64,000 nucleotides of DNA. Origin: Deltaproteobacteria bacterium. GTDB taxonomy: Bacteria; Bdellovibrionota_C; UBA2361; SZUA-149; JADZAE01. The notes under the pieces are model-generated. The model saw only the letters and a program-made list of their open reading frames with translations, was not told the origin of the DNA and did not search any database. Location of the stretch: the NCBI GenBank assembly GCA_020852715.1, contig JADZAE010000077.1, forward strand, positions 39,622 to 103,621, written 5' to 3'. A program made the translations under genes and the position numbers. Shown in pieces: positions 848-55,294 of the stretch. Position 1 is the stretch's first letter, and every line of letters begins with the position of its first letter.

Positions 848-1247
848 ATGAATAATGATGAGACTAGTCCTCTCAGACTACTTGAAGTAATTCGCGAGGA
901 ACTGGCCTCGCAGAAATGTCGGAGAGGGATTCAGACAGAATTATCCTTGAAATAAAGGCTGCACTTAATGTGGCTTTTAGTCAAGTTGATTCAGATGCCC
1001 GCGAGTTGGCATTTGCCATGAGCGAGTTGGGAAAGCAGCTCAAGATCGCAGCGGAAACCTGAGCCTCTCAATATGAGACCCGGAAGAAAGCCGTTGAAAG
1101 CGCAATCTGCGCAGCACTGTGCTATGGAAAAGCCACCGTCCATCCCAAGTTAATCAGCCAAAATTGGCTTGATCAGGAAGACGAATGGCAAGGTAAAGAG
1201 TATGAAGCGATCTCTTTCGCTAATACTCTACTCCGGAGAAGATAGTC
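848..1247 (+). pseudogene. Small hypothetical gene disrupted by a frameshift near 916-930 and an in-frame TGA at 1060-1062.
   Basis: AGGAGG RBS before the ATG at 848. The reading continues in the +2 frame (MSERDSDRIILEIKAALNVAF...AAET*ASQYETRKKAVESAICAAL...RRR*) through a TGA. Confidence 0.3.
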
Positions 1248-1257
1248 TTATTTAAGC

Positions 1258-1312
1258 ATGCCCGCAAGATGTTATGGTTAAGCATAGTTACTGACCACAA
1301 CATCTTGCGGCT
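1258..1312. repeat. Long hairpin (13/14-bp stem gcccgcaagatgtt / aacatcttgcgggc, 25-nt loop) downstream of the disrupted small gene.
   Basis: Inverted repeat read directly from the sequence. No T-run follows. Confidence 0.4.
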
Positions 1313-1688
1313 GAAGGCCGGGGCATAGACGGAGTCTTATGCACGAATCCATCGGTTGCGTTACTTCAGAGTACCCGCGCTAGCACCAATGACGCCCATA
1401 ATATTGCGGCGCCTATGGAACTCGACCCATCTTTGGAAACGAAGCGGACAAAGTGGGTCGCCACCGATGCGCATTCACGCGGTGCTTGTCGGCTTCGCCA
1501 CACACCGCCGCCGATATAAACCCATCGCTGATGAATTTTGAACAAATCAAGGTTGATAGAAACTACTTGTCTCACTATTCTTATTACTGACATTACCGGG
1601 AATGCAAGAATCATCTTGCCTTGCCCTCCTGAAAACGGAAACGGATATCTATACCGAAGCTGTTAGCCGAACCGCATGCAGAAAATGT

Positions 1689-4600
1689 ATGTTCGAAAAA
1701 GTAAAACCCTGGGTTGATTTTATTGAGCTGGAGCACAAAGTGCTTCAATTCTGGGATAAAGAGCAAATCTTCCAGCAACTAATTTCAAAAAACCAAAACG
1801 GCCCACGCTGGTCTTTTCTCGATGGCCCAATCACGGCCAACAATTCAATGGGAGTGCATCACGCTTGGGGGCGCACCTTAAAAGACACTTTTCAGCGCTA
1901 CCATGCCATGGAAGGCCAATGCCTTCGCTACCAAAACGGCTTTGACTGCCAAGGACTGTGGGTGGAAGTGGAGGTAGAAAAGCAGTTAGAGTTTAAGTGC
2001 AAAAAAGACATTGAAGCATTTGGCATAGAGAAGTTTGTGAATCTTTGTAAAGAGCGAGTTCACAAATATAGCAAACAAATCACCGCGCTGTCTCGGCGGC
2101 TTGGTTACTGGATAGACTGGGATAATAGTTATTTCACCATGTCCGATGAAAATAACTATACGATCTGGAGCTTCTTAAAAAAGTGCCATGAGCGCGGCTT
2201 GATTTATCACGACTATGACGTTATGCCCTGGTGCCCACGCTGCGGTACCGGTCTATCACAACACGAAATGGGCGAAGGCTATAAAGAAATTGCTCATACC
2301 TCAGTGATCGTCAGATTCCCGCTCACCGAGTGTGGAAACGAATATCTGCTTGTCTGGACAACAACTCCGTGGACTTTATCTTCTAACGTTGCCGTTGCCG
2401 TAAATCCGGATACAATTTATCTTAAAGCCCGACAAGGCGGCGACATTTTAATACTCGCCAAGGCGCTAGCCGATAAAGTGCTAAAAGCTAAAGGTGCCTA
2501 CGAAATCCTATCTGAGCTTCCCGGTAGCGAACTACTTAATTTGAAATACGCTGGTCCCTACGACGAATTACCGGCACAGGTTAAGAACAAACTACGGCAT
2601 AAAGTAATTGCCTGGAAAGAAGTAAGCGACGCTGATGGCACAGGCTTAGTGCATATCGCTCCGGGCTGCGGCAAGAAAGACTTCGCGCTAGGAAAGAAAA
2701 ATGGTCTGCTCGCGCTTTGCTCGATCAGCGAGGAAGGCATTTACGGCGAGGGCTTCGGCTTTCTCACCGGCAAACACGCAAGTTCAGTCGCCGAAGAAGT
2801 GGTAGCGAATCTTAAGAAAAAACAAATTCTCTACTCACAAGAAAAGTTCAAACACAGCTATCCTCATTGTTGGCGCTGCGGCACTGAGCTCTTATTCCGC
2901 TTAGTTAAGGAATGGTTTATTTCCATGGATAGCTGACGCTCTGAAATCATGGAAGTAACTAAGCAAATCACCTGGATTCCAAGTTACGGCAAAGAGCTGG
3001 AGCTAGATTGGCTTAAAAACATGCATGATTGGATGATCTCCAAAAAACGCTATTGGGGATTGGCGCTACCGATCTGGATTTGTCAGGACAAAAACTGTGC
3101 TCACTTTGAAGTTATCGGCAGCAAAGAAGAGTTTAAGGAAAAGGCAATCAGCGGCTGGCAAGACTTTGATGGTCATTCACCGCATCGACCATGGATAGAT
3201 AATGTCCTCATAAAATGTCCAAAATGTGGTGGCCAGGCCAAACGTATTCCCGATGTCGGCAACCCGTGGCTTGATGCCGGTATAGTTCCTTATTCAACAA
3301 TCAAATACAACTCCGACCAAGAGTATTTTAAGCAATGGTTTCCGGCTGACTTAGTGCTTGAATGCTTTCCCTGACAATTTAAGAATTGGTTTTATAGTCT
3401 GCTCGCGATGAGTACGATGATGGAGAATAAGCCACCTTTTAAAACTTTGCTTGGACATGCCTTAGCCAGAGATGAAAAGGGTGCCGAGATGCATAAAAGC
3501 GCCGGCAATGCCATCTGGTTTGACGATGCCACAGAGAAGATGGGCGTCGACGTTATGCGCTGGTTGTATTGCGGCCAGGACGCCACAATCAATCTCAACT
3601 TGGCTTTAATATCACCAAAGAAATTAGGGGAGGGGTAGTTAATACCTATTGGAATACTTACTCGTTCTTTTGTAACGTTGCCGCCGCTGCCAATTTTATT
3701 CCTCAGCGCTCAGCAAGCGAGCCCAAGGACAGGCCGGAAATAGACAGATAGATTATCGCCAAGCTCAATGCCTACTATAAGGTTGCCGCACGTTGTTATG
3801 AGCAGTGCGACACCCACGCTGTTGACAAAGGCGCTGAAGATTTTCTGGAAAATCTTAGTAACTGGTATATTCGGCTCTGCCGCCGACGTTTTTGGGGAGA
3901 GTTATCGGTAAATTCCGACGCGCTTAGCGCTTTTCAAACACTTTATGAGTGCCTGGAGGGATTAACGCGCATTGTAGCTCCGATGCTTCCGTTTATAACT
4001 GAGAATATTTATCAAAATCTTGTTCTCGGTCATGATAAAAATGCGCCGGCCAGTATTCATCTAAGCGACTTTCCAATAGCTAAAGAGGAATTGATTAACA
4101 CCAAGTTAATCGACGAGATGGACGCTATCAGAAAACTTACCACACTGGCTTTATCAGCGCGGGAAAATGCCAAAATAAAGATCAGACAACCTTTAGCTGA
4201 GATTGTTGTCGAGACCGGGGATGTTTTAGTAAAAAAAGCAGCCGATAAATTTAAAGATTTATCACTGGAAACGCTGAACATCAAACTGATGCAGATAAAA
4301 GAGGTCGGGGCTCTCGGCTACCAATTCAAAGTCCAACCCAATTACAAAACCTTAGGACCTAAGCTTGGAGCAGGGTTAAATAAAGTAATTGCGGCGATTG
4401 CCGCTCAGCCCCCCGCAGCGCTTAAAGAACAAATAGATAAACATAAAAGTGCGGCCCTGACTGTAGAAGGACAGTCTGTTACTATAAGTGCTGAAGATAT
4501 CACCTTTAGTATATTACCCATTGCTTCATACAGCATGGCTTCTGACGCCAAATCTGTTGTCGCGGTGAACACCACAATAGATGAAGTGCTGGCTCAGGAA

Positions 4601-4861
4601 GGGTTAATGCTTGATCTGTTGCGCAAGCTCCAAGAGCTGCGCAAAGAAACTGGCCTCGATATCTCTGATCGGATAAATCTTAGCTACAGCACAGAGTCTC
4701 AAGCACTAAAGGCGATGTTTAGCGTTTGGGGGCCATACATCAAAGACGAACTGCTTTGCGAAAAGCTTGAAGTTAGTAGTGACTTAGCTAAAGAACTTGA
4801 GGTGCTTGGAGAACGATTGGCCGTGCAGATCACGAAAATCAATAATCCGCAACACCCATAA
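1689..4861 (+). pseudogene. ileS: Isoleucyl-tRNA synthetase, type 2 (eukaryote/Thermus-like), pseudogene. Three in-frame stops (TGA 2934-2936, TGA 3372-3374, TAG 3749-3751) and a frameshift near 3585-3605. Catalytic motifs are degenerate.
   Basis: N-terminus MFEKVKPW...GPITANNSMGVHHAWGRTLKD, with the HIGH motif replaced by [38 protein letters not shown] region reads EMHKSAGN. The TAG replaces the W of the conserved DRWI motif (EIDR*IIAKLN). WNTYSFF appears in a shifted frame. The C-terminal domain is in ORF 3983..4861. Confidence 0.85.
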
Positions 4862-6236: not shown

Positions 6237-6676
6237 ATTCAAATTCGCAAATCCGTCACTATCTGCTCTTTCGTTCATGTAAACCTTGACGAACAAAAGG
6301 CGGCTTTTGGTTGTGCCAACACCTCCAACGATGATGTTCCCGATGATGAATGGACAAGGATATTCGAATCTCACAACGATTTAATTAGAACAGCGTTAAA
6401 CAAAGGAGAGACAGTTGTTCAAGAAACTGCCAGCACAACTCGAGAGTGGCGCGCTCGTGCTAGGAAAACAGCGCAGGATCTGGGTTTTGCTCCTTATGTA
6501 ATATTTGTTGATATTTCTGAGTCTGTTATCTGGAAAAGGTGGCAGCAAAACGCAATTAATCACTCCCGCTATCACACACCAAAAAATGTCCTCAGTGCTT
6601 ACATTCAGGAATTTGAAAGGCCTAGCGCTGACGAGAACGTGCTTCGTTACGACGAATCGATACCACTAATCAAGTA
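6237..6676 (+). pseudogene. C-terminal fragment of a P-loop kinase-like (AAA_33/zeta-toxin-like) protein. It has no start codon and no N-terminal P-loop.
   Basis: Open frame ...VHVNLDEQKAAFGCANTS...APYVIFVDISESVIWKRWQQNAINHSRYHTPKNVLSAYIQEFERP... with no ATG. The family assignment is tentative. Confidence 0.3.
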
Positions 6677-6828
6677 GCTAAATACTTTAAAGCTTACTGC
6701 TAGTTAATTTGATCAACGCACAAACTTCTTCTTCCTTAACCTAATAAATAGCTAATGCCTAACTAAACAATTTGTTATAAACTCTCGGTGTCGCATTTTT
6801 CTAATCCGAACATAAGAAAATTTGAAAT

Positions 6829-7327
6829 ATGAAACTCTTCAACAAAACCGTTCTGATGGCCACAGCTTTAGGGACGGTATGCCTGGGTGCTTTCGCATCT
6901 AATACGTCTGCCGAAAAAGTATGCGTCAATAGCAGCGGAGTTCTATATTATCGCTCTACTACTGCATGTCCGTCCGGGCAAAGAGATGTTACGGCATCAA
7001 TTATTGGACAAACTGGATCAACAGGCGCAACTGGGTTAATTGATCCGTCAGGTTGAGTCGTTTATACGAAATCTGATTTAGGCACTCTTTTCGATTCTCC
7101 TCCCTACACAGCAAGCGTTTCTAATGATTGCGTCGTTGATGTCTCTCCGGATTATTATATGTTGACATGGGGATTCACTTCCTCTGCTTCCGGAAGCGCC
7201 ACGCCAAGCAAAGCTAACTTAATTTATAATTCTTACTATGCTACAGGAATTGATGTGATGGTGACAAACAGCACCGATCAAACTGTGAACGTCAGAGTGG
7301 TTTGTTGCCCAGGGCCAGTAACTAATT
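6829..7327 (+). pseudogene. Secreted protein with a signal peptide and G-x-T triplets (GQTGSTGATG), interrupted by an in-frame TGA at 7054-7056.
   Basis: MKLFNKTVLMATALGTVCLGAFA... then TGA, then the same frame continues VVYTKSDLGTLFDSPPYTASV...VVCCPGPVTN*. A collagen/BclA-like short triplet stretch. Confidence 0.4.
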
Positions 7328-7731
7328 AGCCCCCCGATGACCGTCTGCCTGGTACCGGGTGCCAAAATAGACGCAGATGTCCGCTTGGTAGCGGGTGCTA
7401 GTATAGAGGCCAAGTGAGCGAACCAGCAAATATGGAACACAAAGCACCACACTCACCTTAGATCGACTTCATCACCTAAAATCAGGCTAACTACATCACA
7501 ATAAATTTGCTAATTGCCGCTCTTCAACTAAATTTAAATAGAGAACTCCACTAGAACTGCAAATTCCAACTCCAATGAGGCTTATCGGTAACCTGGATCT
7601 TCTTAGATGCGAAAATCAAGCGCCATAAAATTAAAAATATTATATTCTTAGGGGTTTGCGACTATCGGCGCCGAAGATACCGGGTGCTAGTTTGCGGCTG
7701 GGGTTTGAGGGGAGCGGGGGTTAATGTTTAG

Positions 7732-9648: not shown

Positions 9649-11555
9649 ATGTTAAGAAACTTGATTGACATCACAATTATTGTTCTGGTCTCGCTCGCCT
9701 GCTTTTCTAATACATTAGAAAATAGCTTTCATTTAGATGATTTCTACAGAGTGCAAGATAATCCAGGCATACAAAGCATAGCTCCTCTTTGGCGCCATTT
9801 CGTAGAGCCACGCCCCATGTCCACGCTCGATAGGATTAAGCAGTTTCGCCCATTATTGCCGCTAACGCTATCATTTAATTATTATTTTCGCGGTGAACAC
9901 ATAGCCGGTTATCATCTAGTAACCTTGGCTTTACAAACCATCACAACAATCTTTGTATTTTTATTTCACCTTGAGCTCTTAACACGCTGGGTCGGTAACG
10001 CCGACGAGCAAAAGGGACGGAGCAATGAACTCATCGCTTTTTTGGCGGCGCTTACTTTTGCCATTCATCCTGTTTCCGGAATACTGGTTAATTATATTTG
10101 TGCCCCCGACTTAATTCTCATGCAGTTTTTTATGATACCAACGCTTTTGATATATGCACGCATGCGCCGCAGGGTAGAAAACTCCCTGCTAAGCTGGATT
10201 AGTATCTTCAAACCAAACCTCCTTTCCATCTTGTCCAAAACAGACACGGCCATGCTCCCGGCAATTATCTTTTTATTTGAAATATTTTTAAACAAAAAAA
10301 CTTAAAAGAGATCAGCCCATATCTACAAACTCTGCCTATCGCTATCGCCATTTTTTGCTATTTTGCATATACCAAATATTATTTGAAATTTTCCGATTTC
10401 GAAAACGTCGTCAACACCCATGGAGCAGCATTTGATTATTTCAAACCTCAACTAGCTCTGCATCTTTTTTATTATCTACGCAATTTCTTCTGGCCCTTCT
10501 ATTTGCGGCAGTTACCAATGATCGACACCGAAACAGCGCTATTTCACGCACAAACCGTAATTGGTGCTATTTTTATACTCCTAACATTATTGATTGCGCT
10601 GCGCGCTTGGAACAAACAGCCAATTATTTCCTTTTGTATATTATCATACTGGGCACCACTTTTCCCGGCAACTTCATTTCTGCCGTTTCATCACTTGATA
10701 GTTGACTATCGGCCATATCCAAGCAGCGTGTTTTTATTTCTGCTACTTGCATATTTAGCCCAGCGATATTTGCCCAACAAAGCATTTATTTCAATAATGC
10801 TAAACTTTATTGTTTTCATAGCTGCCGCCAGCTATTTTCATAACTACAATTGGCGCACTGAGGCAACCCTTTGGACACAGAGTGTGAAACACGGAGCCGA
10901 CGCCACAGCACACATGAATTTAGCAATGTCAATTAAAGATAGAGACGATCCGCGTGTGGAGTATTATTTCCGCGAGGCTTTAAGAATGGCACCGAGGTTC
11001 GCTCTAAGGAATATCAATTTGGGGCTATTATTGCTCGATAAGAATAAGTAAGAAGAGGGGCTCTGGTATTGCCGAAACGCTGTTACGCTAGCCCCGGGCT
11101 GGGGGCAAGTCCACTATTGGCTTTCACAATGCTATAGCAAAGTAGGGGATAGTAAAAATGCATGCTACTCGGCGCTAAGAGCAACCCGACTTGATTCGAA
11201 AAATATCAGTTATCTTCATCGCGCCGCTTTTTTAGTCCAGCAATTTAATGACTACAAGCAAAGCTTAAATCTCCTCCAAAGCGTACCAAATGGCTACCAG
11301 GACGCCCTTTTTCTCAAAGCTTTTGCTGCACAAATGAGTAATCAAAATCAATTAGCGATTAACGCCTATACAGAACTTCTGAACCGACAACCCGAACATA
11401 TGCAGGCCAACTTTAATCTCGGCTATACTCTGATGATAGAAGGGAACTACGCAAAAGCAATTCCATACTTTCAAAAAGCCCTAGAACTCAAACCCGACTA
11501 TGATAAAATTCATAGTTATCTTAGCCGCTGCGCAGATGAGCTAAAGACTCGCTGA
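9649..11555 (+). pseudogene. TMTC-like DUF1736 + TPR-repeat GT-C glycosyltransferase, disrupted by a frameshift near 10306-10382 and an in-frame TAA at 11049-11051.
   Basis: FHLDDFYRVQDNPGI...YRPLLPLT...GYHLVTL (DUF1736 signatures). TPR repeats continue through the TAA (LLLLDKNK*EEGLWYCRNAVTLAPGWGQVHYWL...) into ORF 11334..11555. Confidence 0.75.
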
Positions 11556-11757: not shown

Positions 11758-13113
11758 CGCCTAACCTCGCAACTGACGAAAATGGTATTACTAGGAAGTT
11801 ACAAAAAATATATTCTCAAATTATCCGTGGGGTATATTCATAACAAAAGCCACAATAGTGTTAGTGGGCAAAGCAATAACGCCACACTGATAACAACATT
11901 TAACCATGCCGAAAACCCTTAAACTTGCTCCAAACATTTCAAAAACAACACTTGTGCCCAGATACTAATAATAATCTAGATCACCGCAAATGCTGCTAGA
12001 GCAAATCCTGACGCTGGACCTGATCTAGTAAATAAATCTTGCCTAAACCAAGCAATTTCTAAAACAATAAGCGGTAATATCTAAATTACTGGAACGCTAC
12101 TCCATGCCATGACCGCTCTAATATTGTCTTTTGATCCTGTTCCGCCTATCCAAGTTCCGGTTCAACGAATTAAGATGCTAGCAATATATAGCTAAATTAT
12201 TCCACCTAAAGGGCCACTAACGGCATAACCAAAAACTATCATCGGCCATTCCAGAGTGTCTCCTAAATCCCTGACGCTGGCGCGATCAATGGCCTTGCTA
12301 AATCCATCTAAAGCTGCCAATAATAAAACAAACCGAGTAGGGTTTGTATCTATTATCAGCTAAATAGTAGCTCGTGGCTTAAGTCAGATAGATATCCAAG
12401 GATTTAATGTTTGCTCAACTGTGTTTTCCATTTTAATCTCTCAATCAGTTAAACAACCAATTAATTAGACTTAAATGCCACAACTGGGAACAACGTTTAA
12501 CACTGACATAGCATCTGCTCCACAAAGCTATAAAATGCTCTGAACGCTAACATCCAACCATGGAGAAGATAAGTTATAATGGGCACGCCACGCCTTGCGC
12601 TTATTTATTTGTCCTCTATATAGCATTATGCCCGATAAGGTTTCTTATCAGGCATAGCCCTCGGCTGCCCGGCTATAGATAGACATATATAATAGTAGTC
12701 CGGTTTTCGTCCAAGGGGTAAAGTTAAGACTTTTTTGCCCCAAATCAAAAGGGCAAAAGTCACAGAGGACCTCCAAGCAAAAAAACAATCGGCATGTTGT
12801 GCGCTCCATTATGTGCGCGAGTAACTACTAAGCACTCTGACACGACTAGCGCACGACATGCCAAACATGAATTAATCATTTGCTTAAGACGCCAAAATCG
12901 TAGCCATAAAAATTAACGGGCACCCTAAGCAAATATATATCATTCCCAGGAAATAAATTATTTTTTTACTAAAAAGCACAAATGCTTTCTATCTTTGTCC
13001 TAAGGGAATGGTTATCTCCATTGATCGCTACTTAATTCGAATAAGAGCCCTTACATCAATGGCATCTTGCCTACGCCATGAAATATTCATCTCAATATCG
13101 GGCCGACATTCAT

Positions 13114-16149: not shown

Positions 16150-16878
16150 TTAATTGACAAAGATTGCTAGCTGTACACGGAACCGAATGCTGAGAACTCC
16201 GTAGATAGAAATGACAAACGAGAAGTGAAACAATTCGCAAGAGTCGCGACAACAATTTACGGTTTGTCTTAAAAATCTGGTTACTCACCGGAATAAGTGG
16301 GTAAGAATGTAAAAACTTCCTGGAAATCGTAGAGCGTGAGTTGAGAAAACAAACGCAAGCGCCAACGGCAATTCACGGGCGACCGGCGGGTGACCGCAAA
16401 ATGCCATCGGCAATGGCACCGCATATTCTGTCGAAATGTTTAGCTGATAAAGTAGGACATGGCTTTACCCGAGACACCAAAAAATACGCCGTCATTGTAG
16501 ATTTAGCCATATTCCTATGGGCTTATCAGTCGCATGTACGAGTTTCTTCATTATGTGCGGAACTCAGGCGAAGGCAAACATCGGCAAACAACGATGCTCA
16601 GAATGTTTCTAAACACTTGGATAACCAAAATTATACGCTCCAAAATAGAGCCAATGAAGCACATGGCTCGCCAGATTAGACACCTCCAGCCACTTATTTT
16701 TAATTGGCTTACGGCCAAAAAACTATTCTCTTCCGGAATCGTTGAAGGTTTTAACAACAAAGCTAAAGTCACGCTAAAAAAAGCCTACGGATTTCACACC
16801 TTAAATGCCGTGCAAATCGCGTTATTTCAGCAACTTGGAGCTTTACCTGAACATCTGCTCACCCATACTTTCTGGTGA
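16150..16878 (+). mobile_element. ISL3-family transposase remnant (C-terminal ~240 codons, in several frames). Pseudogene.
   Basis: C-terminal ...SSGIVEGFNNKAKVTLKKAYGFHTLNAVQIALFQQLG is typical of the ISL3 transposase C-terminus. Upstream pieces are in other frames. The N-terminal half is absent. Confidence 0.6.
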
Positions 16879-16943: not shown

Positions 16944-17445
16944 CTACTCCAATCCGAAGAGCAAAGGCGCCTTTTCCGCCTCCAGTCCACGATTCTCTTG
17001 CGGATAACCAAGATTATGTTGCGAAAAATAAAACGGAGTTCGCACAGACCATTCCTCAGAACGAGTGGCCCGAGGTGTGCCCCAAATAAGACCGGGGGAT
17101 TTTATCCCCGGCCGTATAAAATTATCCCAGCTGTGAATTGGTGAGCCACTTAAATGCAACGCTGATCCCAAGACCAATAGCAACAGGGAGAAACCCCAGG
17201 GCCAAAAAGAGCCGCGTATAAACCGAAAGCCATTCTCTAAACGCTGATTATTCATATTGTAGCTGGTAATAAAGCACCGTGGTAGCCAGATAATTGATTA
17301 AGCGTGAGGCAATTACGAGTAGCAGAAGTAATATCATTAGAGGAGCAAAAATAAAACTGCGCTTGCCCCAGGGGGCCAATAATATGCCCACTAAGTCTTC
17401 TTTTACAGGCACTATTAGCACATCATGTAATAACGAGCTATGCAT
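16944..17445 (-). pseudogene. Hypothetical membrane protein interrupted by a frameshift near 17248-17255.
   Basis: Two overlapping ORFs in different frames with hydrophobic segments (LMILLLLLVIASRLI..., WPWGFSLLLLVLG...). Confidence 0.3.
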
Positions 17446-17635: not shown

Positions 17636-18721
17636 CTAAGTGACTATCATCCGTAGAATATTCTCCGGGCAAACATGACTACAAAGAGAGCAGCCGTCGC
17701 ATAAATTATTATCGATAAGTATCGGCTTTAGAGAAACTTTTCGCGAAAGTGATTCGTGTGTAGATATTGAGCCCACAGCTTTGCCGCACATTTCCTCAAT
17801 TGAGCTAAATCCCTTGTCGGTCATGTAATTTGTAAGGCCGGCGATCATGGGCCGAATTATCTCAAAACCATTAAGCATCACGGCTGTGCAAACTTGAACC
17901 ACGTAGGAGCTGGCAGAAATATTCGATGGCGTCTTTATAGTCAGAGATACCACCGAGGCCGTGAATAGGAAGTTTAACCTTTGCCGCAATCTGCGAACCA
18001 CATCTTAGGCCAATTGGCTTAACACTTTGTCCGGAATATCCACCGTAGGTAGAATAGCCCGAGACGTTGGGTAGCGGTTGAAACGTATCGATATCTACCC
18101 CCATTAAACACTATACTGTATTAATAGCGGCAAGCGCATCGGCGTTTCCCTCTAAGGCAGCTTGAGTAATGGAGACAATATCCATAACATTTGGCGTAAA
18201 CTTTACGATTAACGGGAACTTTACTTCCGACTTAATCGCCCGGGTCATTTCTCTCTCCAAAGCAGCGTCTTGGCCGATGGCTGCACCAATATGCTTTTCC
18301 GGCATGCCGTTTAACTCAAGCGCATCGGCACCGGCATCAGCAACTGCCTTTGCTACCCCGATCCAGCTTTCTATATTGCTGTGCCCCATAATGCTGGCAC
18401 TGAGCATCTTTCCGGGAAAATCTTTTTTTATTGCTGTTATTTCGGCTAACCAATAGCCGAGACTTTTCTGCTGAGTAGCTCAATATTTTCAAATCCAATT
18501 AATTCGTTTTTTGCGCTTTTGATCGTAGCAAAACGCGGAGATATGTTTTCAATAGTTAAATCATCGGGTGTAATGGTTTTAATAACAGCCCCTCCCCAAC
18601 CGTTAGCAAGATCGCGTCTAATCATTTCACCTGTGGCAGTGGGCGGTCCTGAAGCTAACAAAAAAGGATTTTCATATTCTAGTCCATTGTGAGTAGTTCT
18701 AAGTAAACTTGAAGATGGCAT
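17636..18721 (-). pseudogene. Dihydropyrimidine/dihydroorotate dehydrogenase-family protein with a C-terminal 4Fe-4S ferredoxin domain (PreA-like). Split into four ORFs by two frameshifts and one in-frame stop.
   Basis: NPFLLASGPP... (18721 frame), ...ELNGMPEKHIGAAIGQD...KFPLIVKFTPNV (18407 frame), ...LPIHGLGGISDYKDAIEYF, ...CDGCSLCSHVCPENI. Reading frames run 1, 2, 2, 1. Confidence 0.7.
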
Positions 18722-23532: not shown

Positions 23533-24536
<1,004 letters not shown>

Positions 24537-36160: not shown

Positions 36161-36162
36161 AC

Positions 36163-37275
36163 CTACTTCCCTCTTTTATAAAATGGTTTTTTAATTACCT
36201 CGGCAAGCAACTGCTTATCACGCACCTGTGCATAAACTTTTGTCCCGAAATTGGCAAACTCACTTTCCAGAAAAGCTAAAGCAAGGGCCTTTCCTATGGT
36301 TGGGCACATAGTCCCGCTAGCCACCCAACCGATCTCCCTACCGTCCCGGTATATTCTAGTTTCAGCTCTAACAATTCCAGGATCCTTAACTTCTATTCCT
36401 ACTAAACAATATTTAGTCCCATTTTCTTTGGCTTGAATAATCGCTCGCTTACCAATGAAATTCTCTTTGCTTTGTGCTATTGCCCATCCCTGCCCGGAAC
36501 TGATGGCATTAATATCAGTACGTAACTCATGCCCATGAAGCGGGTAACATGCTTCAAGACGCAGAGTATCACGCGCTCCTAACCCAATCGGTAAAAGCCC
36601 ATAACTTTTCCCGACCGCCAGAATCCCTCGCCACAGCTCGACTACTGTTTCTATAGGGCAATATATTTCGAATCCATCTTCCCCGGTATAGCCAGTAGTA
36701 GCGATTATTAGGTCATTATTTTTTTGTCTAAGAATCTTGACTCTAAATGGTGGCCACGCATCAGCAGCTAGCTGCTCCGGCGAAAATGATAAATAATCAG
36801 CTAGTATCCTGCGTGCACATGGCCCTTGAATGGCTATTTGACCATAGCGTGCAGAGTGATTTTCTACCGCCACAGAAAAACGAATGGCCTGCGCATTCAA
36901 CCATTGATCATCGATCCGAACATTGGAGGCATTAACGCATAAAAAATAGTCATCTCCGCTTAGCTGATAGACAATGACATCATCGATCACTCCCCCTTCT
37001 TCATTTAAAAACATCCCGTAAATAGCTTGCCCTGAAACAATCTTACCTATGTCGTTAGAAAATACCTCCTGCAAAAAGACTAAAGCATCTTTGCCATGCA
37101 CTCGTATTTGGCCCATATGGCTAACATCAAACAACCCTGCAGCTGATCGCACAGCTTTATGCTCTTCCAAGATCCCACTGTATTGCATCGGCATCTCCCA
37201 TTGTCCAAAGGGCACGAAGCGCGCGCCTAGAGCTTTATGTTCCTCATATAATGGGGTTCTCATTAACTCTGACAT
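36163..37275 (-). CDS. gcvT: Aminomethyltransferase (glycine cleavage T protein).
   Basis: 370 aa. TPLYEEHKALGARFVPFGQWEMPMQY... Confidence 0.93.
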   Translation of the reverse strand: MSELMRTPLYEEHKALGARFVPFGQWEMPMQYSGILEEHKAVRSAAGLFDVSHMGQIRVHGKDALVFLQEVFSNDIGKIVSGQAIYGMFLNEEGGVIDDVIVYQLSGDDYFLCVNASNVRIDDQWLNAQAIRFSVAVENHSARYGQIAIQGPCARRILADYLSFSPEQLAADAWPPFRVKILRQKNNDLIIATTGYTGEDGFEIYCPIETVVELWRGILAVGKSYGLLPIGLGARDTLRLEACYPLHGHELRTDINAISSGQGWAIAQSKENFIGKRAIIQAKENGTKYCLVGIEVKDPGIVRAETRIYRDGREIGWVASGTMCPTIGKALALAFLESEFANFGTKVYAQVRDKQLLAEVIKKPFYKRGK

Positions 37276-37281
37276 CTTACT

Positions 37282-38148
37282 CTATTGGTTCCCTGCTGCA
37301 ATCAAAGTGTTCTTAATTAACATGGCAATAGTCATTGGGCCAACTCCTCCCGGCACCGGCGTAATTGCCGCCGCTTTCTCTTTAACTTCATCGAAATCCA
37401 CATCGCCAATCAGCTTTCCATCAGCTGAGCGATTTATGCCGACATCAATAACCACGGCATTTGTCTTGATAAAATCTTTTTTTATCAGCTTTGGCATGCC
37501 AACCGCAGCCACAACAATATCACTATGAACACACGCAGCTTTTAAATTTTCAGTTTTAGAATGGCAAAGTGTAACCGTACAATTTTCTTGGGTCAGTAGC
37601 ATAGCCACCGGCTTACCTACTAAACTTGATCTACCAATCACCGTCGCGCTTAAACCGCTAAGATTATCATCACGATATAACTCCCTTCTCGCATCTTTAA
37701 TAAGTTCGATGATTCCCAACGGCGTGCAGGGGACAAGACGCGCCTGACCTCTAAACAACAACCCTTGATTATATGGGTTAAGACCATCAACATCTTTCGC
37801 CGGGGCAATAGACAAAATAGCCGACAACTCATCGAGATGTTTAGGCAAAGGTAACTGCAACAAAATACCGTCAACGTGCTTATCAATACTCAAGGCTTTT
37901 AATGAAATTTCCAAATCGGGCTGTGTTACATCTTCGGGTAGACGCAGATCTTCGACAGCTAAACCACAGGCACGCGCACGTTTGGTCTTACTGGCCACAT
38001 ATACTTCGCTTGCCGGATTATTACCAACAAGCACAACACGCAGCGAAGGCATTCGTCCAATGCGAGAGTGAATTTCTGCAGCTTGCTCGCTTAACTCCAG
38101 CTCAATATTTGCAGATAGCTCTTTTCCGTTAATTATTAGAGCAGACAT
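37282..38148 (-). CDS. folD: Bifunctional methylenetetrahydrofolate dehydrogenase/cyclohydrolase.
   Basis: 288 aa. ...VGNNPASEVYVASK..., PVPGGVGPMTIAML. Confidence 0.93.
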   Translation of the reverse strand: MSALIINGKELSANIELELSEQAAEIHSRIGRMPSLRVVLVGNNPASEVYVASKTKRARACGLAVEDLRLPEDVTQPDLEISLKALSIDKHVDGILLQLPLPKHLDELSAILSIAPAKDVDGLNPYNQGLLFRGQARLVPCTPLGIIELIKDARRELYRDDNLSGLSATVIGRSSLVGKPVAMLLTQENCTVTLCHSKTENLKAACVHSDIVVAAVGMPKLIKKDFIKTNAVVIDVGINRSADGKLIGDVDFDEVKEKAAAITPVPGGVGPMTIAMLIKNTLIAAGNQ

Positions 38149-38184
38149 AGAATTCTCCTATCTCCGCCAATAACCGTTAGTGCG

Positions 38185-38475
38185 TTACTTTTGATTGGCT
38201 GCAACTGCTTGGATTTGTTTTCGCCTAACCATTACCGGAGTGTTAATAATCAATGCTGTACTACCGTCTTTTCTTTCCCACTGAATATCCAAATTAGCCT
38301 GATTAGTCTCAAAGTAGATTGCTATCACTTTCATCAAATCATTGCGAAATTTGTCCATCTCTTGCGAAGAAAGGCCGCTTCTATCTTGAATCAAAACCAT
38401 CTGCAGACGGTTCTTCGCTAATTGATTAGTAAATGCATGGTCACCGAAAAGTTTATTTACAAAATTCTTAAACAC
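38185..38475 (-). CDS. minE: Cell division topological specificity factor MinE.
   Basis: 96 aa. N-terminal MFKNFVNKLFG amphipathic helix. Follows minD. Confidence 0.88.
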   Translation of the reverse strand: MFKNFVNKLFGDHAFTNQLAKNRLQMVLIQDRSGLSSQEMDKFRNDLMKVIAIYFETNQANLDIQWERKDGSTALIINTPVMVRRKQIQAVAANQK

Positions 38476-38536
38476 TGTCTTCTCTCTTCAATTTTGGGTT
38501 TTTGTTTTCTGCTCTTTGCTCATTGTCCAAGCGCAA

Positions 38537-39358
38537 CTAGGCAGCACGCAGTTTCTTACCTAACTTAGCCCAAAGGCTGGTGCCAATATCCAAATCTTCA
38601 ATGGGCACATCCATTCCGCAAATGCGATCAGCAATTTGCAAAAACGCCTTGCCCGCTTTGGACTTGGTATTATAAACAACGAGATCACCAGCATTAGCCG
38701 AAATGACCACATCGTTATCACGAAAAATCATGCCAATTTGTTCAATTCCTAATATTTCGATCACATCCTGAGGAGAAAGCATATCTCCACGACGCACCAT
38801 ATCCCGATCAACACGATTAATCATCATACGTGTTTCTAAAGATGAAGCTGCTAAAAGCCCAATCACACGATCAGCATCGCGAACCGCCGATACTTCTGGA
38901 GTAGTCACCACTATCGCCTCATCCGCTGCCGCACAGGCATTTCTAAAGCCCTGCTCAATTCCAGCCGGACAATCAATTAAAATAAAATTATATTCGGCCT
39001 TATATTTATTGACCAATTCTTTCATCTCTTCTGGTGTTACCACATTCTTATCATCAGTCTGCGATGCCGGTAACAAAAAAAGATTATTTGATTTCTTGCT
39101 TTTAATAACAGCTTGCTGCGGTTTACAAACACCCTTGATCGCATCCACCAGGTTAAAGACGATGCGGTTTTCTAAGCCCATAATCACGTCTAGATTTCTC
39201 AAACCGATATCAGCGTCAATCACTAGAACTTTTTTATTACGCACGGCTAAGGCTGCACCTAAATTGGCAGCCGTCGTAGTTTTCCCCACGCCACCCTTAC
39301 CTGAAGTTATTACAAACACTTTCGCTGTCATGAATTTACTTACCTCGCTATTACACAC
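38537..39358 (-). CDS. minD: Septum site-determining ATPase MinD.
   Basis: VITSGKGGVGKTTTAANLG deviant Walker A. 273 aa. Confidence 0.95.
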   Translation of the reverse strand: MCNSEVSKFMTAKVFVITSGKGGVGKTTTAANLGAALAVRNKKVLVIDADIGLRNLDVIMGLENRIVFNLVDAIKGVCKPQQAVIKSKKSNNLFLLPASQTDDKNVVTPEEMKELVNKYKAEYNFILIDCPAGIEQGFRNACAAADEAIVVTTPEVSAVRDADRVIGLLAASSLETRMMINRVDRDMVRRGDMLSPQDVIEILGIEQIGMIFRDNDVVISANAGDLVVYNTKSKAGKAFLQIADRICGMDVPIEDLDIGTSLWAKLGKKLRAA

Positions 39359-39364
39359 ACCACA

Positions 39365-40309
39365 TTAACGGGATCTTTTAACTAAACTTAAAACTGATGT
39401 TCGCGGATTGAAGGACTCAACAATTATGCGTCGATCATCGATACGTGCTATCTCCGGCCCATGCACCGGCTCGCCACTGCCACGCGAAATCACCGAACCA
39501 ATTCTCAACTGCATCGGCTGCATACGGTGAGCAATAATCACACGATTCACACCCTCGTCATCATAAGCCGAGGCGTGAGCAGTGCCGCGTAATGCCCCTA
39601 ATACTATGATATCACCGCCGGCAATCAAATCAGCACCCGGGTTAACATCACCGACGACTACCAAACTAAAAGGACTCTCCAACTTCTGTCCTGAGCGTAA
39701 AGTCCCATAATAAATACGGGCATTGGCATCTTCTTCGAACAATAAATCTTCGCCCAGAGACTGGGAAATCTGGTCAAAATAAGATTTTGTATTTACTTTG
39801 TTATTTATGTCTGCTTGAGCAGCGAAGCTTTTTGTAGACACTTCTGATTTCTTTGGTCGGAGGCTAAATGGCTTCAGATTTGACTCTGATCCTGAAACCA
39901 ACTGTTCGATTTGATCGGCTAAAGAATTTGCTGAAACTCTTGTCTGCACGCCTGGAGGAGGCTTGATCGCCTTTAGACGTGACTCGCGCTTTCTGCGCGG
40001 CGTGATCTCGATATCATAGCTATTTTTTAAAAGCTCTTCGAGTTCCTTACCTTGCTCCGTAGTTGGTAAACGATCAAGCCACTCAATTGAAACCTTAGCT
40101 CCACTTAAAAATGTTTTTCTCTCCGCTAGAAAAGGTTTTAACTCCGCTAAAATATTTTCCCACTCGGCACGTCCATCAATGCGCAAGACCACACCATCTT
40201 CTGTGCCGGTAGCATTAATTAAGCGCCCGTGATGTAAATCCCCACGCGCAGCTAAAGCAGAAACATCAGCGATATTTTCCGAACCATCATTATGTTGATC
40301 TTCACGCAT
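39365..40309 (-). CDS. minC: Septum site-determining protein MinC.
   Basis: 314 aa. C-terminal beta-helix region ...LVVVGDVNPGADLIAGGDIIVLGALRG... Confidence 0.88.
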   Translation of the reverse strand: MREDQHNDGSENIADVSALAARGDLHHGRLINATGTEDGVVLRIDGRAEWENILAELKPFLAERKTFLSGAKVSIEWLDRLPTTEQGKELEELLKNSYDIEITPRRKRESRLKAIKPPPGVQTRVSANSLADQIEQLVSGSESNLKPFSLRPKKSEVSTKSFAAQADINNKVNTKSYFDQISQSLGEDLLFEEDANARIYYGTLRSGQKLESPFSLVVVGDVNPGADLIAGGDIIVLGALRGTAHASAYDDEGVNRVIIAHRMQPMQLRIGSVISRGSGEPVHGPEIARIDDRRIIVESFNPRTSVLSLVKRSR

Positions 40310-40519
40310 AGCACTTCCAATTTTTATTTATTATCGTTAAGCTGTACTGAACGAAAATTACACACAAAGAACTAGCCAAAGGAGAGATGATTGGCTCTAA
40401 GTTTAAATTGTTTGTAGCAAGATGAACTATTGGCCGTCAATTAAAGATTAGTCTACCTTTTATATTAGGACTTTCCGACGAGCATTACCACATGAGATTA
40501 GTGATAAATTATTATTGGG

Positions 40520-40547
40520 ATAAAAAAGCCGAGCGTTAACTCGGCTG
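40520..40547 (-). terminator. Rho-independent terminator for the 40536..41621 gene (agccgag-ttaacg-ctcggct + T-run on the minus strand).
   Basis: 7-bp stem overlapping the stop codon, followed by a TTTTTT run (minus strand). Confidence 0.65.
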
Positions 40548-41621
40548 AAAGATACAAACGTTTTGTGTAACTTCGATAAGCTTTTTGAGCCTATCAAGAG
40601 TCATTAGGCGTTTAGGAAGACAAGTTATTTCTTCTTCCGTCAAACTTCCTAAAACAATCCTCTGGTCAAACAGCTCCCCCATGCGCTCAAGGGCAATATC
40701 CACCAACGGATCTTCCCTGTCCAAAGCCCTTATAGCCTCAGCCACTGACACACAATCGGTTGCTGACGAAATCTGCTTAGATACCTTCTCGCGTATCTTT
40801 TTCTTAAGCAGCTTTGCCGCCTCCAAATCACTAGCTAGCTCTTGTTGCCAACTACGCAGCGTGCTCAATGCCCCATCCCCAAGACAGACTTCTTGGATAA
40901 TCTGACTTACTTTGTTTTGCCAGGTTTCCATGCTGGAAAGCTCTGGCCGTAAGTAAGGCCGAACGCTCAAGATCTCTTTGATTCCCACCGCCGCCTTGAT
41001 CCTTTCGTCTAAGATACGATCAAGTAAACAAAGAGCGTCTGCCTTTATTTTTGATCCAGTGCTAGCCAAAGCATAAGCCTTGCTAACTTGATCCAGGTTT
41101 TCCCCTTCCAGCATCTTCCTAGCAAAGTAATCGCAACGACGAGCTTTTGCAAATTCGATGACACTTGTAGAGCACTTTAACCCTTCCAGGCGACCTTTCA
41201 TTTCCAGATAGCTCTTGGCTGACTGGATGATCGTCAATATCTCATGTACCAGTTCACGTTGCATTAAACACAAACTTCCCGAATAAAATTGCGGGGGCTG
41301 ACTATAAAGCAAAGCATATAACCTGTCTAAATAACCCAGGTCATATCTTTGCTCAATAAGCTCCGAAACAAGATCCTCTACTCGCTTTGCCGTAAGCTTT
41401 CTCAAGGCATCGTTTTCCAGATGCTCGGCGCAATCAATCACCGCCTCCACTGTTTCTGCCTGTTCCACACAGAACTGAAACAATACTTGCTGCACTTCAA
41501 TGGGAAGATCCTCTTTGCTAACATCAGAAGGATCAATTCTCACAGAGCGCGCACCAGTGAAAGCAATCAAGACATTAACCGGCAAGCGCAACAAACCGGC
41601 CAACTTATCTAAGTCACACAT
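40536..41621 (-). CDS. Hypothetical alpha-helical protein (361 aa).
   Basis: Intact ORF with its own terminator. No domain I recognise. Confidence 0.55.
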   Translation of the reverse strand: MCDLDKLAGLLRLPVNVLIAFTGARSVRIDPSDVSKEDLPIEVQQVLFQFCVEQAETVEAVIDCAEHLENDALRKLTAKRVEDLVSELIEQRYDLGYLDRLYALLYSQPPQFYSGSLCLMQRELVHEILTIIQSAKSYLEMKGRLEGLKCSTSVIEFAKARRCDYFARKMLEGENLDQVSKAYALASTGSKIKADALCLLDRILDERIKAAVGIKEILSVRPYLRPELSSMETWQNKVSQIIQEVCLGDGALSTLRSWQQELASDLEAAKLLKKKIREKVSKQISSATDCVSVAEAIRALDREDPLVDIALERMGELFDQRIVLGSLTEEEITCLPKRLMTLDRLKKLIEVTQNVCIFQPS

Positions 41622-42183
41622 ACAACCTCCAACGTTTTAGACCCGCCGGTCATCATTGCTACCAGCAATGCTGGTAAAAACCTCAAGGCATAAAAATATC
41701 ATAGGCGCCATTGATATGCAAACAGTTGCCCAAAATAACCGGCTATTATTGCACCTAGCTGTGCACTATTAGGAATGTTCCGGCACAATAAATCAACTTA
41801 AAGAGCTACGTATTGGAAATTTTTAGGTCAGTGGAGTTGCTAAGCCTTACGCCCGAGTAGTGGAGTTTACTAGCTGTAAATGAGCAGTTTCTCTGTGGTC
41901 ATGAGGTTTAGCTAGTCTGGCTACGATTTTGAGGGGAAGACGAGGAAAGCGAGCGGCGAGCACCAATCGGAAGCGCAAAGGGGCTTTCGGCAGTATTGGT
42001 TTTCATGTCCAGTGCCCCTTGTCTAGCAGAACAATATTTTGGTTAAGTGTAGTGAACTACATGCGGAGCGGAGCCGCGATGGTTGACGAAGTATTTACCC
42101 AAAAGCGTTCTCAGATAGAAGTAAATAAGCAGCGCAGGGCCGAAAGTTGACAAAGTATCTGCCCAAAATCGCTCGCTTCCGTC

Positions 42184-42705
42184 CTAGATGTGGCAGATTT
42201 TAGAAAGCTCAGCCTTAATCGAATCTTCCGGACAAGCCTTGGCAATAGACATTTCTTTCACCAAAAGGCCTTGAGCCGTATCCAGCATCTTGCGCTCGCC
42301 AAAAGAAAGCTCTTTGTCGGATTTCAGAACAGAAAGATCACGAATTACTTTAGCTATCTCAAAAACAGAACCTGTTTTAATTTTCTGAGTATATTCGCGA
42401 TAACGACGATTCCAGGTCTGATTATCGATGATAATGTCGCGATCACGCAGAATATCATAAACTTTTTCTGCGGTTTTAGCGTCAACGATCTTTCTTAAAC
42501 CGACGTTTTCAACTTGATGAACAGGAACCATGATCTTCATTCCTGTCTCGATAACTGTAAGCATATAAAAACTCTGCTCTGAGCCAGAGACTTTACGCGA
42601 TTGAACGGCATCAACTATGCAAACTCCTTGGGCAGGATAAACGACCTTATCTCCGACCCTAAAATTAGCGTTATTTGCGTCAAGTTTCTTTGCTGCTATA
42701 GCCAT
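42184..42705 (-). CDS. carD: CarD/CdnL-family RNA-polymerase-binding transcription factor.
   Basis: FRVGDKVVYPAQGVCIVDAV... (RNAP-interacting Tudor-like N-domain). 173 aa. Confidence 0.85.
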   Translation of the reverse strand: MAIAAKKLDANNANFRVGDKVVYPAQGVCIVDAVQSRKVSGSEQSFYMLTVIETGMKIMVPVHQVENVGLRKIVDAKTAEKVYDILRDRDIIIDNQTWNRRYREYTQKIKTGSVFEIAKVIRDLSVLKSDKELSFGERKMLDTAQGLLVKEMSIAKACPEDSIKAELSKICHI

Positions 42706-42829
42706 TTTAGTTTTTAACCTGGTTAATTCGTTTATAATAAAGCACTTTTATGGACGAGGCGCGGGAAGATAACACAAATACTGTAAAATGGCAAATAACC
42801 GATTACTTTACTGACATTATTGCCAATTT

Positions 42830-53185: not shown

Positions 53186-53212
53186 GACCGGCAGTCCCTA
53201 GCAAGCCAGTAG

Positions 53213-54806
53213 CTAATACTTAAACTGTTGCAGTAATTCCTGCAAAGCCGCAGCTCTTTGCGCTAGGTCTGTAGCAACTTGCTGGGTAAGAGTTGCTACG
53301 CTGGCCGCTTGCTGCGAGGTCACAGATACTTCTTTGATACCTGTAGCAATCTCGCTACTGCTGATCGCTACTTCGGCAGCGTTACCGGAAATCTCTCGAG
53401 TGGTGACACTTTGCTCCTCGACAGCACTGGCAATCGTCGTTGAGACATCATTGATCTGCTCAACAATGGCAGTTACTTCGTTTAACGAGTCAATAGCCTC
53501 ATTGGTCCCAGCCTGTATGTCCCGCACACGTCTAGTAATTTCCTCAGTTGAATGCGATGTCTGTTTAGCCAATTCTTTTACTTCGTTAGCAACAACAGCA
53601 AAGCCTTTCCCCGCCTCTCCAGCACGGGCGGCCTCAATGGTAGCATTTAAAGCTAACAAGTTGGTCTGCTCAGCAATGGCGCTAATAAGGTTCACGACAT
53701 TCCCAATTTCCTTGCTACTAGCATCCAGCCTAGCAATCTTATCATTAGTTAATTTTACTGCGTGTAAAGATCTTTGTGCAATTTCTCGCGCACCAGCAGT
53801 ATTATTAGAGATCTCCCTAACCGCCTCTGCCATCTGCTCAGAAGCAGAAGCTACAGTATTAATGTTGGTATTTACTTGCCCGGCAGCAGAAGCAATTATT
53901 TGGGTTTGTGAGAAAGCGTTAAGAGCACTGCTATATACATACTTTGCCCTTCTGATTTCAATTGAGTCGCAGCATCTGCCAAGGCCACAACATTTTGCCC
54001 AATCTGTGATACGGCAGACTGAATCCGAGCAACAAAAGCATTAAACCAATCAGCAACTTGTCTTAATTCATTTTTACTCTGCACATTTAGTCGCCTAGTT
54101 AAATCTCCTTCTCCCTGGGCAATATCACGCAAAGCGGTAATAACAGTAGCCAGCGGTCGGGTAATGCTGTTACTTAAAAATATACCAAGTATAAAAACAA
54201 TACATATGCCCACTAGAATTAATCCCCAGCTTAATTTCCGCATGAGGTTAGCATCTACTTCCGCAGCTTCCACCCGTTCTCGAGCCTTGGTATTATGAAA
54301 CTGGACAATTTGTTCAAAAGCAGCAAAAAGTTTATTGGAAGCGTTTTTAAACTCATTACTTAATTGGGCATTAAAGTGCGTAGTGCTGTCGATATCTTTT
54401 TTACGGGAGATAATCATCTCCTCACCAGTTTTATCCCAGGCAGCAAATGCTTCTTTCACTTCATTATATAAAGCTTCCTCTCCTTCCAAAAAAGGTGTGG
54501 CCAAAAATTCATCACGGTAACGGTTATAATCTGCACGTAAGGACAAATATTTATCGTGAATTTTTCAACCAACTCCTCAGTATTTGACTCTAAGCTGGCG
54601 CGAATAACAAAAGCTCGCATATCCTTAGCCTGCCCATCCATTTTACTAAGCTCAACAGTGGCCGGAAAATTTTTTCACGCCATCTTGTGAAAGTTATCCT
54701 ACAGCTGGTTTAGCGCGTAAGAACTGGCAAACCCTAAGATGATCAATAAGATCGTGGACACTACCGGGCCCAGCAAAACACGCGATCGAAACGAAGTCAG
54801 CGCCAT
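53213..54806 (-). pseudogene. Methyl-accepting chemotaxis protein (4HB sensor, TM, HAMP, MCP signalling domain). Disrupted by two in-frame stops near the N-terminus and at least two frameshifts.
   Basis: C-terminal ...[27 protein letters not shown]... (53213..53833). HAMP/sensor portion in ORF 53896..54546. N-terminus MALTSFRSRVLLG...NQL*DNFHKMA*KNF... Confidence 0.8.
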
Positions 54807-54874
54807 ATAATTCTTTTTAAAAATGTTAGTAAAAGTTGGCGATTAATTTCACCGACTTTTGATTTATAATTTTA

Positions 54875-55294
54875 TTATAGGTCAGAGCCAGCAAGCTCAT
54901 CGCACAATTTAAACACCTTTTGGATTCTTTCTTTTTGAATCCCGGTTCCCAACTTCTCAGCTTCTTCCTGTTTGCCGGCTACGATAGCTGGAACTAGTTC
55001 TTCTTTTCTGGTTTTATGAAAAGCCGCCCATGCCTCTTTCAGCTCGCTAAACTTTGTCTCTTGTTCCGGAGCTGCTTTCATTGTCGCCAGCATTTGATCT
55101 ACTTTATTGGCGGTATCGGCAAGTAACTTCTGCTGATCAGCGCCGCGCTTACTTGGATCTTTCAGCAAAGTGATTAAACTCTACCGCGCCTCTCCCATCG
55201 CTTGTTTAAGTTCAGGAAATGTTTGCGCTACGGCCATGTTAATAGAACCGGCAACTAGAAACAAAAACATCGTTAGTATTAGAATCTTTTTCAT
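54875..55294 (-). pseudogene. Secreted four-helix-bundle (MCP-N-terminal-like) sensor fragment with an in-frame TAG at 55178-55180.
   Basis: MKKILILTMFLFLVAGSINMAVAQTFPELKQAMGEAR*SLITLLKDPSKRGADQQKLL...WAAFHKTRKEELVPAI... No TM2, HAMP or signalling domain follows. Confidence 0.45.

Follow-up and report, generated by a model that had tools for sequence, protein, structure and literature searches.

The 64-kb stretch analysed here (64,000 nucleotides of contig JADZAE010000077.1, deposited as a Deltaproteobacteria bacterium; hereafter the window) carries roughly 60 genes, in which intact housekeeping genes stand beside the remains of many others, among them two aminoacyl-tRNA synthetase (aaRS) genes, ileS and trpS. 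About one gene in five is dead, with some 15-16 inactivated, and these are genuine pseudogenes that include copies of two normally essential tRNA-charging enzymes. We counted 29 lesions, comprising 21 premature stops and eight frameshifts, in 11 genes with a combined length of 12.8 kb. We checked the lesion coordinates against six-frame translations and codon lists, and the fragments were stitched and scanned against Pfam; the lesion statistics cover only the 11 genes with enumerable lesions. An earlier note on this DNA had listed about 15 disrupted genes. We could verify 14 of the 15, the exception being a coiled-coil gene for which no homologue was found, and a Yip1 gene with seven in-frame stops is a wreck beyond that list.

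The lesions are far from evenly spread. The 44 intact open reading frames (ORFs; 37.4 kb) contain none, and under a uniform lesion model 21 genes would be expected to be hit as against the 11 observed, a value of 11 or fewer arising in 0 of 100,000 simulations (P<1e-5). The probability of sparing all 37.4 kb of intact sequence is 4e-10. Intact coding sequence accounts for 58% of the window, 37% of its first 32 kb and 79% of its second. Decay is concentrated at 1-31 kb and 52-55 kb, and in the regions at 32-52 kb and 55-64 kb intact coding sequence makes up 79%; the earlier description of the decay as window-wide was therefore overstated. Lesion density ranges from one lesion in the HD hydrolase gene, through about 1.2 per kb in ileS, to about 12 stops per kb in the Yip1 gene, and this wide range indicates that inactivation was spread over time. 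Truncated relics are also present (ISL3, DUF7657, PMT_2 and AAA_33 fragments), as are four gene-free zones of 0.76-0.98 kb (4862-5707, 18722-19483, 52233-53212 and 61913-62860) in which a six-frame scan gave no Pfam match. These zones may be pseudogenes decayed past recognition or unusually long intergenic regions. The load of insertion sequences (IS) in the window is low, at one ISL3 relic and one Y1/IS200-like gene, and its sole RNA gene is a tRNA-Val(GAC) at 47601-47675.

The remnants have the properties by which pseudogenes are usually recognised. Homology to a family extends across the remnant in trpS, the DHO_dh gene, the HD gene, the domains of the methyl-accepting chemotaxis protein (MCP), Yip1 and ileS, while the HExxH, G-x-T and coiled-coil ORFs belong to no family. 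Frames are broken, or less than about 80% of the family length is kept, through stops, frameshifts and truncations. Purifying selection has been lost, as seen from damage to near-invariant and catalytic residues.

The two synthetases illustrate this. The ileS gene retains about 1,055 alignable codons, and its frame is interrupted by a TGA at 2934-2936, where homologues have Leu in the tblastn alignment, by a TGA at 3372-3374 in place of the Gly of FPGQFRNWFYSLL, by a 1-nt deletion near 3600-3602 (at the junction of NLN and FGF) and by a TAG at 3749-3751 at the Trp of LDRWI. Among NCBIfam profiles the N-terminal fragment scores 399 bits with ileS, 330 with MupA and 328 with MupB, and the C-terminal fragment best matches MupB (104 bits) and MupA (91 bits) at profile positions of about 750-989. 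With both the core and the C-terminal domain recognised, these profile matches classify the dead gene as a predicted type 2 (eukaryote-like, MupA/MupB-type) isoleucyl-tRNA synthetase (IleRS). An assignment to MupA or MupB proper was rejected, the scores being far below the cut-offs of those two families. Its named homologues come from the FCB group, Marinimicrobia, Chloroflexota, Actinomycetota and others, and not from Bdellovibrionota. When aligned with 120 homologues, ileS violates six of 135 near-invariant columns.

The trpS gene, encoding a tryptophanyl-tRNA synthetase (TrpRS), carries a 1-nt deletion in the T run at 24242-24246. Once this is repaired, the junction reads LTFYFLNLLT and differs by one residue from the LTFYFLNLVT of homologue P0242. 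Two TAA codons follow, one at 24127-24129 at the Gln of PVSQAADI in homologues, and one at 23935-23937 at the second Lys of KMGKS, a motif that now reads KRG-stop-S. Nine of 112 near-invariant columns are violated in the alignment with 120 homologues. The intact thrS gene, which served as the constraint control, violates one of 190, and against it the excess is significant for both ileS (P=0.02) and trpS (P=7e-4). Named trpS homologues include 'Tryptophan--tRNA ligase 2'. The GC content of the dead aaRS genes, overall and at third codon positions (GC3), matches that of the intact genes, and an origin of foreign composition was rejected.

IleRS and TrpRS functions are essential, and paralogues of these enzymes are dispensable where a housekeeping copy exists; ileS genes of the MupA/MupB-like type are often present as a second copy. 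Because both functions are essential, we infer that the copies of ileS and trpS lost here were redundant, and that another part of the genome, outside the window, encodes a functional IleRS and a functional TrpRS. No intact ileS or trpS paralogue of the same metagenome-assembled genome (MAG) was found among the best 120 matches per search, a divergent copy being possible. It is conceivable that the genome has no other functional IleRS or TrpRS and that a host or prey supplies both, at an early, pseudogene-rich stage of decay, but we hold this to be very improbable. In a milder version, the replacement of aaRS genes would still be under way, and the ileS and trpS that were displaced would remain visible as fresh pseudogenes; the lineage already has a phenylalanyl-tRNA synthetase (PheRS) of archaeal/eukaryotic type.

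Table 1. Positions of the pseudogenes, relics and intact control genes in the 64-kb window.
Feature	Position	Strand	Basis
Small ORF, tandem paralogue of ORF 322-822	886..1245	+	BLASTP, 37% identity over 84 aa, E=5e-8
ileS pseudogene, predicted type 2 MupA/MupB-like IleRS	1602..4861	+	tblastn against homologues; NCBIfam
AAA_33 kinase-like fragment	6237..6677	+	Pfam AAA_33 25-143 of 143, nt ~6270-6624
Secreted protein with short G-x-T collagen-like repeat	6829..7329	+	Signal peptide; premature TGA 7054-7056
Multi-pass membrane and TPR protein ('TMTC-like')	9649..11555	+	Frames, junction, TPR families
PMT_2 glycosyltransferase N-terminal stump, 78 aa	11521..11757	-	47% identity over 47 aa, E=8e-10
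Yip1-family pseudogene	11841..12431	-	Pfam Yip1 5-170 of 173 across all stops
ISL3 transposase remnant	16305..16878	+	Pfam DDE_Tnp_ISL3 138-237 of 240
DUF7657 membrane-protein stump, 103 aa of ~400	16944..17255	-	Pfam DUF7657 2-81 of 401
PreA/dihydropyrimidine-dehydrogenase-like pseudogene	17636..18721	-	DHO_dh 2-291 of 291, single stretch
Secreted HExxH protein	21282..22739	+	One frame throughout; TAA 21609-21611, TGA 21702-21704
trpS pseudogene	23533..24536	-	tRNA-synt_1b profile 8-277 of 292, single stretch
argG, intact control	24554..25894	-	Open 446-aa ORF; 78% identity to best homologue; MCC6933715.1
Two coiled-coil ORFs (138 aa; 87 aa)	26126..27263	-	No homologues or families found
HD-family hydrolase pseudogene	30503..31124	+	HD profile 4-115 of 116 across junction
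Intact block: gcvP, gcvH, gcvT, folD, minE, minD, minC, 361-aa hypothetical, carD-like, acetyltransferase-like ORF, pheT, pheS	32866..46598	-	All open
MCP pseudogene (4HB_MCP_1 + HAMP + MCPsignal)	53213..54806	-	Three domains in order, stitched
Small periplasmic four-helix-bundle (4HB) protein	54875..55294	-	Signal peptide; premature TAG 55181-55183
thrS, intact constraint control	55429..57240	-	Deposited as MCC6933746.1, 100% identical

Other genes in Table 1 are damaged as well. The PreA-like gene has a 1-nt deletion at the A4 run 18464-18467, a TAG at 18111-18113 and a frameshift near 17915, and its C-terminal 4Fe-4S part is truncated. Near 18308 it has also lost five residues in frame, LSCPH, as seen in the alignment with pig dihydropyrimidine dehydrogenase ('ELN-----GMPEK' against 'ELNLSCPHGMGER'); with them has gone the cysteine that we take to be the catalytic one of dihydropyrimidine dehydrogenases. 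The HD-family gene bears an out-of-frame deletion of about eight codons near 30774, the missing residues being evident from comparison with PDB 3djb. In the MCP gene a TAG (54699-54701), a TGA (54675-54677), a 1-nt deletion at the A5 run 54561-54565 and a frameshift at 53933-53934 accumulate. The Yip1 gene holds two TGA, four TAG and one TAA codon in frame and no frameshift. In the TMTC-like gene a 1-nt frameshift at the A7 run 10294-10300 is followed by a TAA at 11049-11051, and in the stitched protein TPR families span the in-frame stop; the label of a TMTC-like glycosyltransferase is putative and comes from an N-terminal DD motif only.

The remaining wrecks are smaller. The PMT_2 stump is a paralogue of the intact PMT_2 glycosyltransferase at 7732-9618, in which PMT_2/PMT is found. 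The recognisable part of the ISL3 remnant is the C-terminal ~100 residues only, and the end of the DUF7657 stump adjoins it. The AAA_33 fragment is missing its P-loop (profile positions 1-24), which was found in no upstream frame. In the small ORF a premature TGA (1060-1062) aligns with a Trp of the paralogue, and in the G-x-T protein, which has no homologue evidence, the frame stays open for 91 codons beyond the TGA. The HELGH motif of the HExxH protein, for which neither Pfam nor NCBIfam gave a family, lies between the two stops. The small 4HB protein has a weak 4HB_MCP_1 match that spans its stop, at 23.8 bits against a cut-off of 27. Upstream of the 87-aa coiled-coil ORF is an in-frame TAG at 26444-26446, and the 138-aa ORF is deposited as an ordinary hypothetical protein.

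Given that the source is a MAG, consensus errors from unpolished long reads or low coverage could have made genes that are intact in the organism appear broken. The frameshifts give this some support, as four of the eight look like the loss of 1 nt from an A/T run of 4-7 bases. The earlier claim that the frameshifts fall outside homopolymers accordingly stood for the other four and failed for these. The wider claim that simple homopolymer error does not account for the decay held: 21 of the 29 lesions are substitutions to stops, and runs of five or more bases are shifted in 0 of 214 cases within the intact ORFs as against about 4 of 69 in the broken genes (Fisher P=0.003). The inferred substitutions are mixed (TGG to TGA, TGG to TAG, CAA to TAA, AAA to TAA, GGA to TGA and TTA to TGA), so that no single chemical or technical artefact explains the lesions. 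An artefact is further contradicted by the clustering by gene and by the additional damage to the broken genes, in which invariant sites have undergone missense changes and stretches of several codons are gone. We therefore regard a sequencing or assembly artefact as quite improbable. The proposal of real pseudogenisation, in turn, was supported by this clustering, by missense changes at invariant and catalytic positions, by multi-codon deletions both in and out of frame, by the IS remnant and, as an independent hint, by the numbering gaps and missing records of the public deposit described below.

A different possibility is that the stops are read as sense, through a reassigned code, selenocysteine or pyrrolysine insertion, or read-through, and that the frameshifts are programmed. 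Both premature TGA codons of ileS are followed by C (TGAC; 2934-2937 and 3372-3375), and TGAC is the leakiest termination context known from Escherichia coli, which would favour read-through at these two sites. The ileS gene carries a TAG and a frameshift in addition, and the shared context is probably coincidental. All three stop codons occur prematurely (eight TGA, eight TAG and five TAA), at positions of Leu, Gly, Trp, Gln or Lys. All three likewise terminate the intact ORFs (18 TAG, 16 TAA and eight TGA), and none is found inside the 42 complete ORFs, which contain 132 TGG codons. The earlier note had argued on similar grounds against stop-codon reassignment, and we concur. An alternative genetic code (tables 4 or 25) was rejected, since the stops replace five different amino acids. 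The eight frameshifts share no common motif, and catalytic residues have been lost. Because all three stops end intact genes and never interrupt them, recoding is effectively excluded, and we assign it a negligible probability.

The public annotation gives a partial view of this decay. The ORFs of the window carry the accessions MCC6933696-MCC6933747 and the locus tags IT292_10675 to IT292_10950. Comparing the steps in locus tags with those in accessions reveals exactly one non-protein feature in each of the intervals that hold PreA, trpS and HD, and one further such feature in the interval that holds the tRNA. The ileS fragments have no protein record, while the neighbouring genes do. From the numbering gaps and the missing ileS records, the annotation pipeline seems to have treated four genes as pseudogenes. 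This agrees with the pseudogene definition of NCBI PGAP (frameshifted, internal stop or incomplete), under which ileS, trpS, the PreA-like gene and the HD gene all fall. In contrast to such calls, pieces of the MCP, HExxH, TMTC-like and DUF7657 genes, among others, entered the deposit as hypothetical proteins in their own right (noted at 53213-55294 and 5708-13758; IT292_10930 and IT292_10735 are examples). The public record therefore shows too little decay and too many genes and proteins. The dead ileS and trpS also mean that an aaRS homologue found in a MAG need not imply that the function is encoded there.

The separate deposition of the MCP, HExxH and TMTC-like pieces raises the question of functional split genes, whose fragments would be expressed separately and assemble into active enzymes. 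Split aaRS genes do exist in a few organisms, which lends the idea a precedent. In this case ileS would have to work as five pieces, mostly without a start codon at the break, and the break in trpS removes the lysine of its KMGKS motif. The PreA-like gene has no catalytic Cys, and the violations at invariant sites indicate lost constraint. We therefore consider functional split genes extremely unlikely.

Several intact genes and neighbouring features complete the locus. Consistent with the earlier statement that essential genes remain intact and end with TAG, TAA or TGA, we found argG, gcvTHP, folD, minCDE, pheST, rplT, rpmI and thrS to be open. The PheRS (43298-46598, minus strand) is of archaeal/eukaryotic type: with the pheT_arch profile PheT reaches 481 bits and with pheT_bact 115, and the 534-aa PheS has the human cytosolic PheRS alpha subunit as its closest match, at 225 bits as against 121 for the E. 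coli enzyme. The usual thrS-infC-rpmI-rplT-pheST cluster is split by about 8 kb between thrS and rpmI/rplT (46794-57240), and no infC was seen in the window. The intervening stretch contains the tRNA-Val, an HDOD protein, a PAS histidine kinase, a PNP_UDP_1 phosphorylase, a DUF218 protein and a methyltransferase along with the dead MCP and 4HB genes. The 603-aa threonyl-tRNA synthetase (ThrRS) lacks the N-terminal TGS domain, Pfam recognising tRNA_SAD, tRNA-synt_2b and HGTP_anticodon only, and its relatives of 589-623 aa are alike in this.

Elsewhere, two overlapping small secreted Cys-rich ORFs of 133 and 115 aa at 20350-21083 (minus strand) share a C-x-PCHG...C pattern; they appear to be tandem paralogues, and Pfam assigns them to no family. 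An intact 278-aa ORF at 31605-32441 (plus strand), located where the GC content of the window is lowest (0.376), has a partial Y1_Tnp domain (IS200-like or REP-associated tyrosine transposase-like). At 14129-16144 (plus strand) a 266-aa ORF and the N-terminal ~200 residues of a SpoIIE phosphatase resemble response-regulator receivers by eye. These regions fall below the Pfam Response_reg threshold, have a weak NCBIfam PleD match and may be degenerate receivers. An intact pair for putrescine formation from agmatine, encoding agmatine deiminase and N-carbamoylputrescine amidase (28420-30346, plus strand), sits between the coiled-coil region and the dead HD hydrolase gene.

After its own record, the next-best ThrRS matches, at 59-71% identity, bear Bdellovibrionales, Oligoflexia or Deltaproteobacteria labels where they are labelled, which points to an isolated Bdellovibrionota-like lineage as the source. 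A contig scan with ArgG gave, among the matches listed, only distant genomes at 78% identity or less and no synteny. The contigs of the nearest ThrRS relatives (71%, 65% and 64% identity) have only thrS in common with the window, and no relative emerged when metagenomes were scanned with the SpoIIE phosphatase. Bdellovibrionota are known for predators rather than decaying symbionts, and in the literature on pseudogene-rich Bdellovibrionota or Oligoflexia we found no paper describing such decay.

Together these data allow us to propose how the window came to its present state. We consider it highly probable that the broken genes of this uncultured Bdellovibrionota-like bacterium are real pseudogenes, which have reached differing stages of ordinary decay as purifying selection on them was relaxed. 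Inactivation took several ordinary mutational routes: point mutations that created each of the three stop codons, 1-nt indels (half of them at short A/T runs), losses of several codons, truncations and at least one IS insertion. Missense changes then went on accruing at otherwise invariant positions. Selection would have been relaxed on surface glycosylation, secreted proteins, one chemoreceptor, pyrimidine catabolism and the redundant aaRS copies. The cause of this relaxation may be a change of lifestyle, through host, prey or niche restriction, or a small effective population.

A number of points weigh against this proposal. The frameshifts at A/T runs are an error type of long reads, and the sequence is a MAG consensus. 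The functional IleRS and TrpRS copies that are assumed, with two essential functions dead here, were not seen in the window, and the collections scanned held no relative above about 70% protein identity and no syntenic locus. Single-lesion cases that have no homologues (the G-x-T protein, the small 4HB protein and the small ORF) are individually weak. Finally, the decay is concentrated in two parts of the window, and to call it genome-wide is an extrapolation.

This last point bears on a more restricted explanation, in which the pseudogenes are real but come from a single variable region where accessory and redundant genes turn over, the rest of the genome being that of a normal free-living bacterium. 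Neither relaxed selection across the lineage nor host restriction would then be involved. The uneven distribution of lesions fits this explanation, as do the functions hit, for the most part accessory ones (two GT-C-like glycosyltransferases, secreted proteins, a chemoreceptor, pyrimidine catabolism, an HD hydrolase and an IS element). The ileS gene, with its non-Bdellovibrionota nearest homologues and its MupA/MupB-like type, fits it too. Against it, ordinary free-living genomes are generally known to show far less decay than is found here, where some 16 genes are dead within 64 kb and intact coding sequence falls to 37% across 32 kb. Dead genes are moreover interleaved with housekeeping genes, argG lying between trpS and the coiled-coil ORFs and thrS beside the MCP gene, and the base composition of the pseudogenes is that of the intact genes. 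On balance we think purely local decay unlikely, though it merits serious consideration, and relaxed selection stays our preferred explanation. The earlier suggestion that chemotaxis is being lost is plausible, judging from one MCP and one small 4HB protein. Intact genes near these two include those for the HDOD protein, the PAS histidine kinase and a Cache-domain protein, and minCDE is intact as well.

If the density of pseudogenes holds genome-wide, the window would represent early-stage reductive evolution in a Bdellovibrionota-like lineage and would make the organism a candidate for a life restricted to a host or prey. That the lineage is recently host- or niche-restricted is a reasonable hypothesis, as seen from one 64-kb window. 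The synthetases have their own point of comparison in systems with a second-copy type 2 IleRS, which is of the mupirocin-insensitive type, or a second TrpRS. As in those systems, the ileS fragments match ileS and then MupA/MupB at both ends; unlike them, both genes are dead here, no resistance or biosynthetic context is found nearby, and the presumed housekeeping copies were not observed.

For the decay as a whole, the comparison is with recently host-restricted, pseudogene-rich bacteria such as Mycobacterium leprae, Sodalis glossinidius, 'Nostoc azollae', Shigella, Yersinia pestis and Burkholderia mallei. The pattern in the window is like theirs, with membership of the class depending on the whole genome and the ecology of the organism. 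The window differs from these genomes in its extent, being 64 kb on a 124-kb contig from a genome whose locus tags imply at least 2,190 genes, and in its low IS load, and it comes from a lineage for which the papers found describe no such decay. In contrast, it resembles them in the high fraction of its genes that nonsense mutations, small indels, deletions and IS elements have put out of action, in its low density of intact coding sequence, in the different ages of its pseudogenes, and in the presence of dead sensory and surface genes beside intact housekeeping genes.

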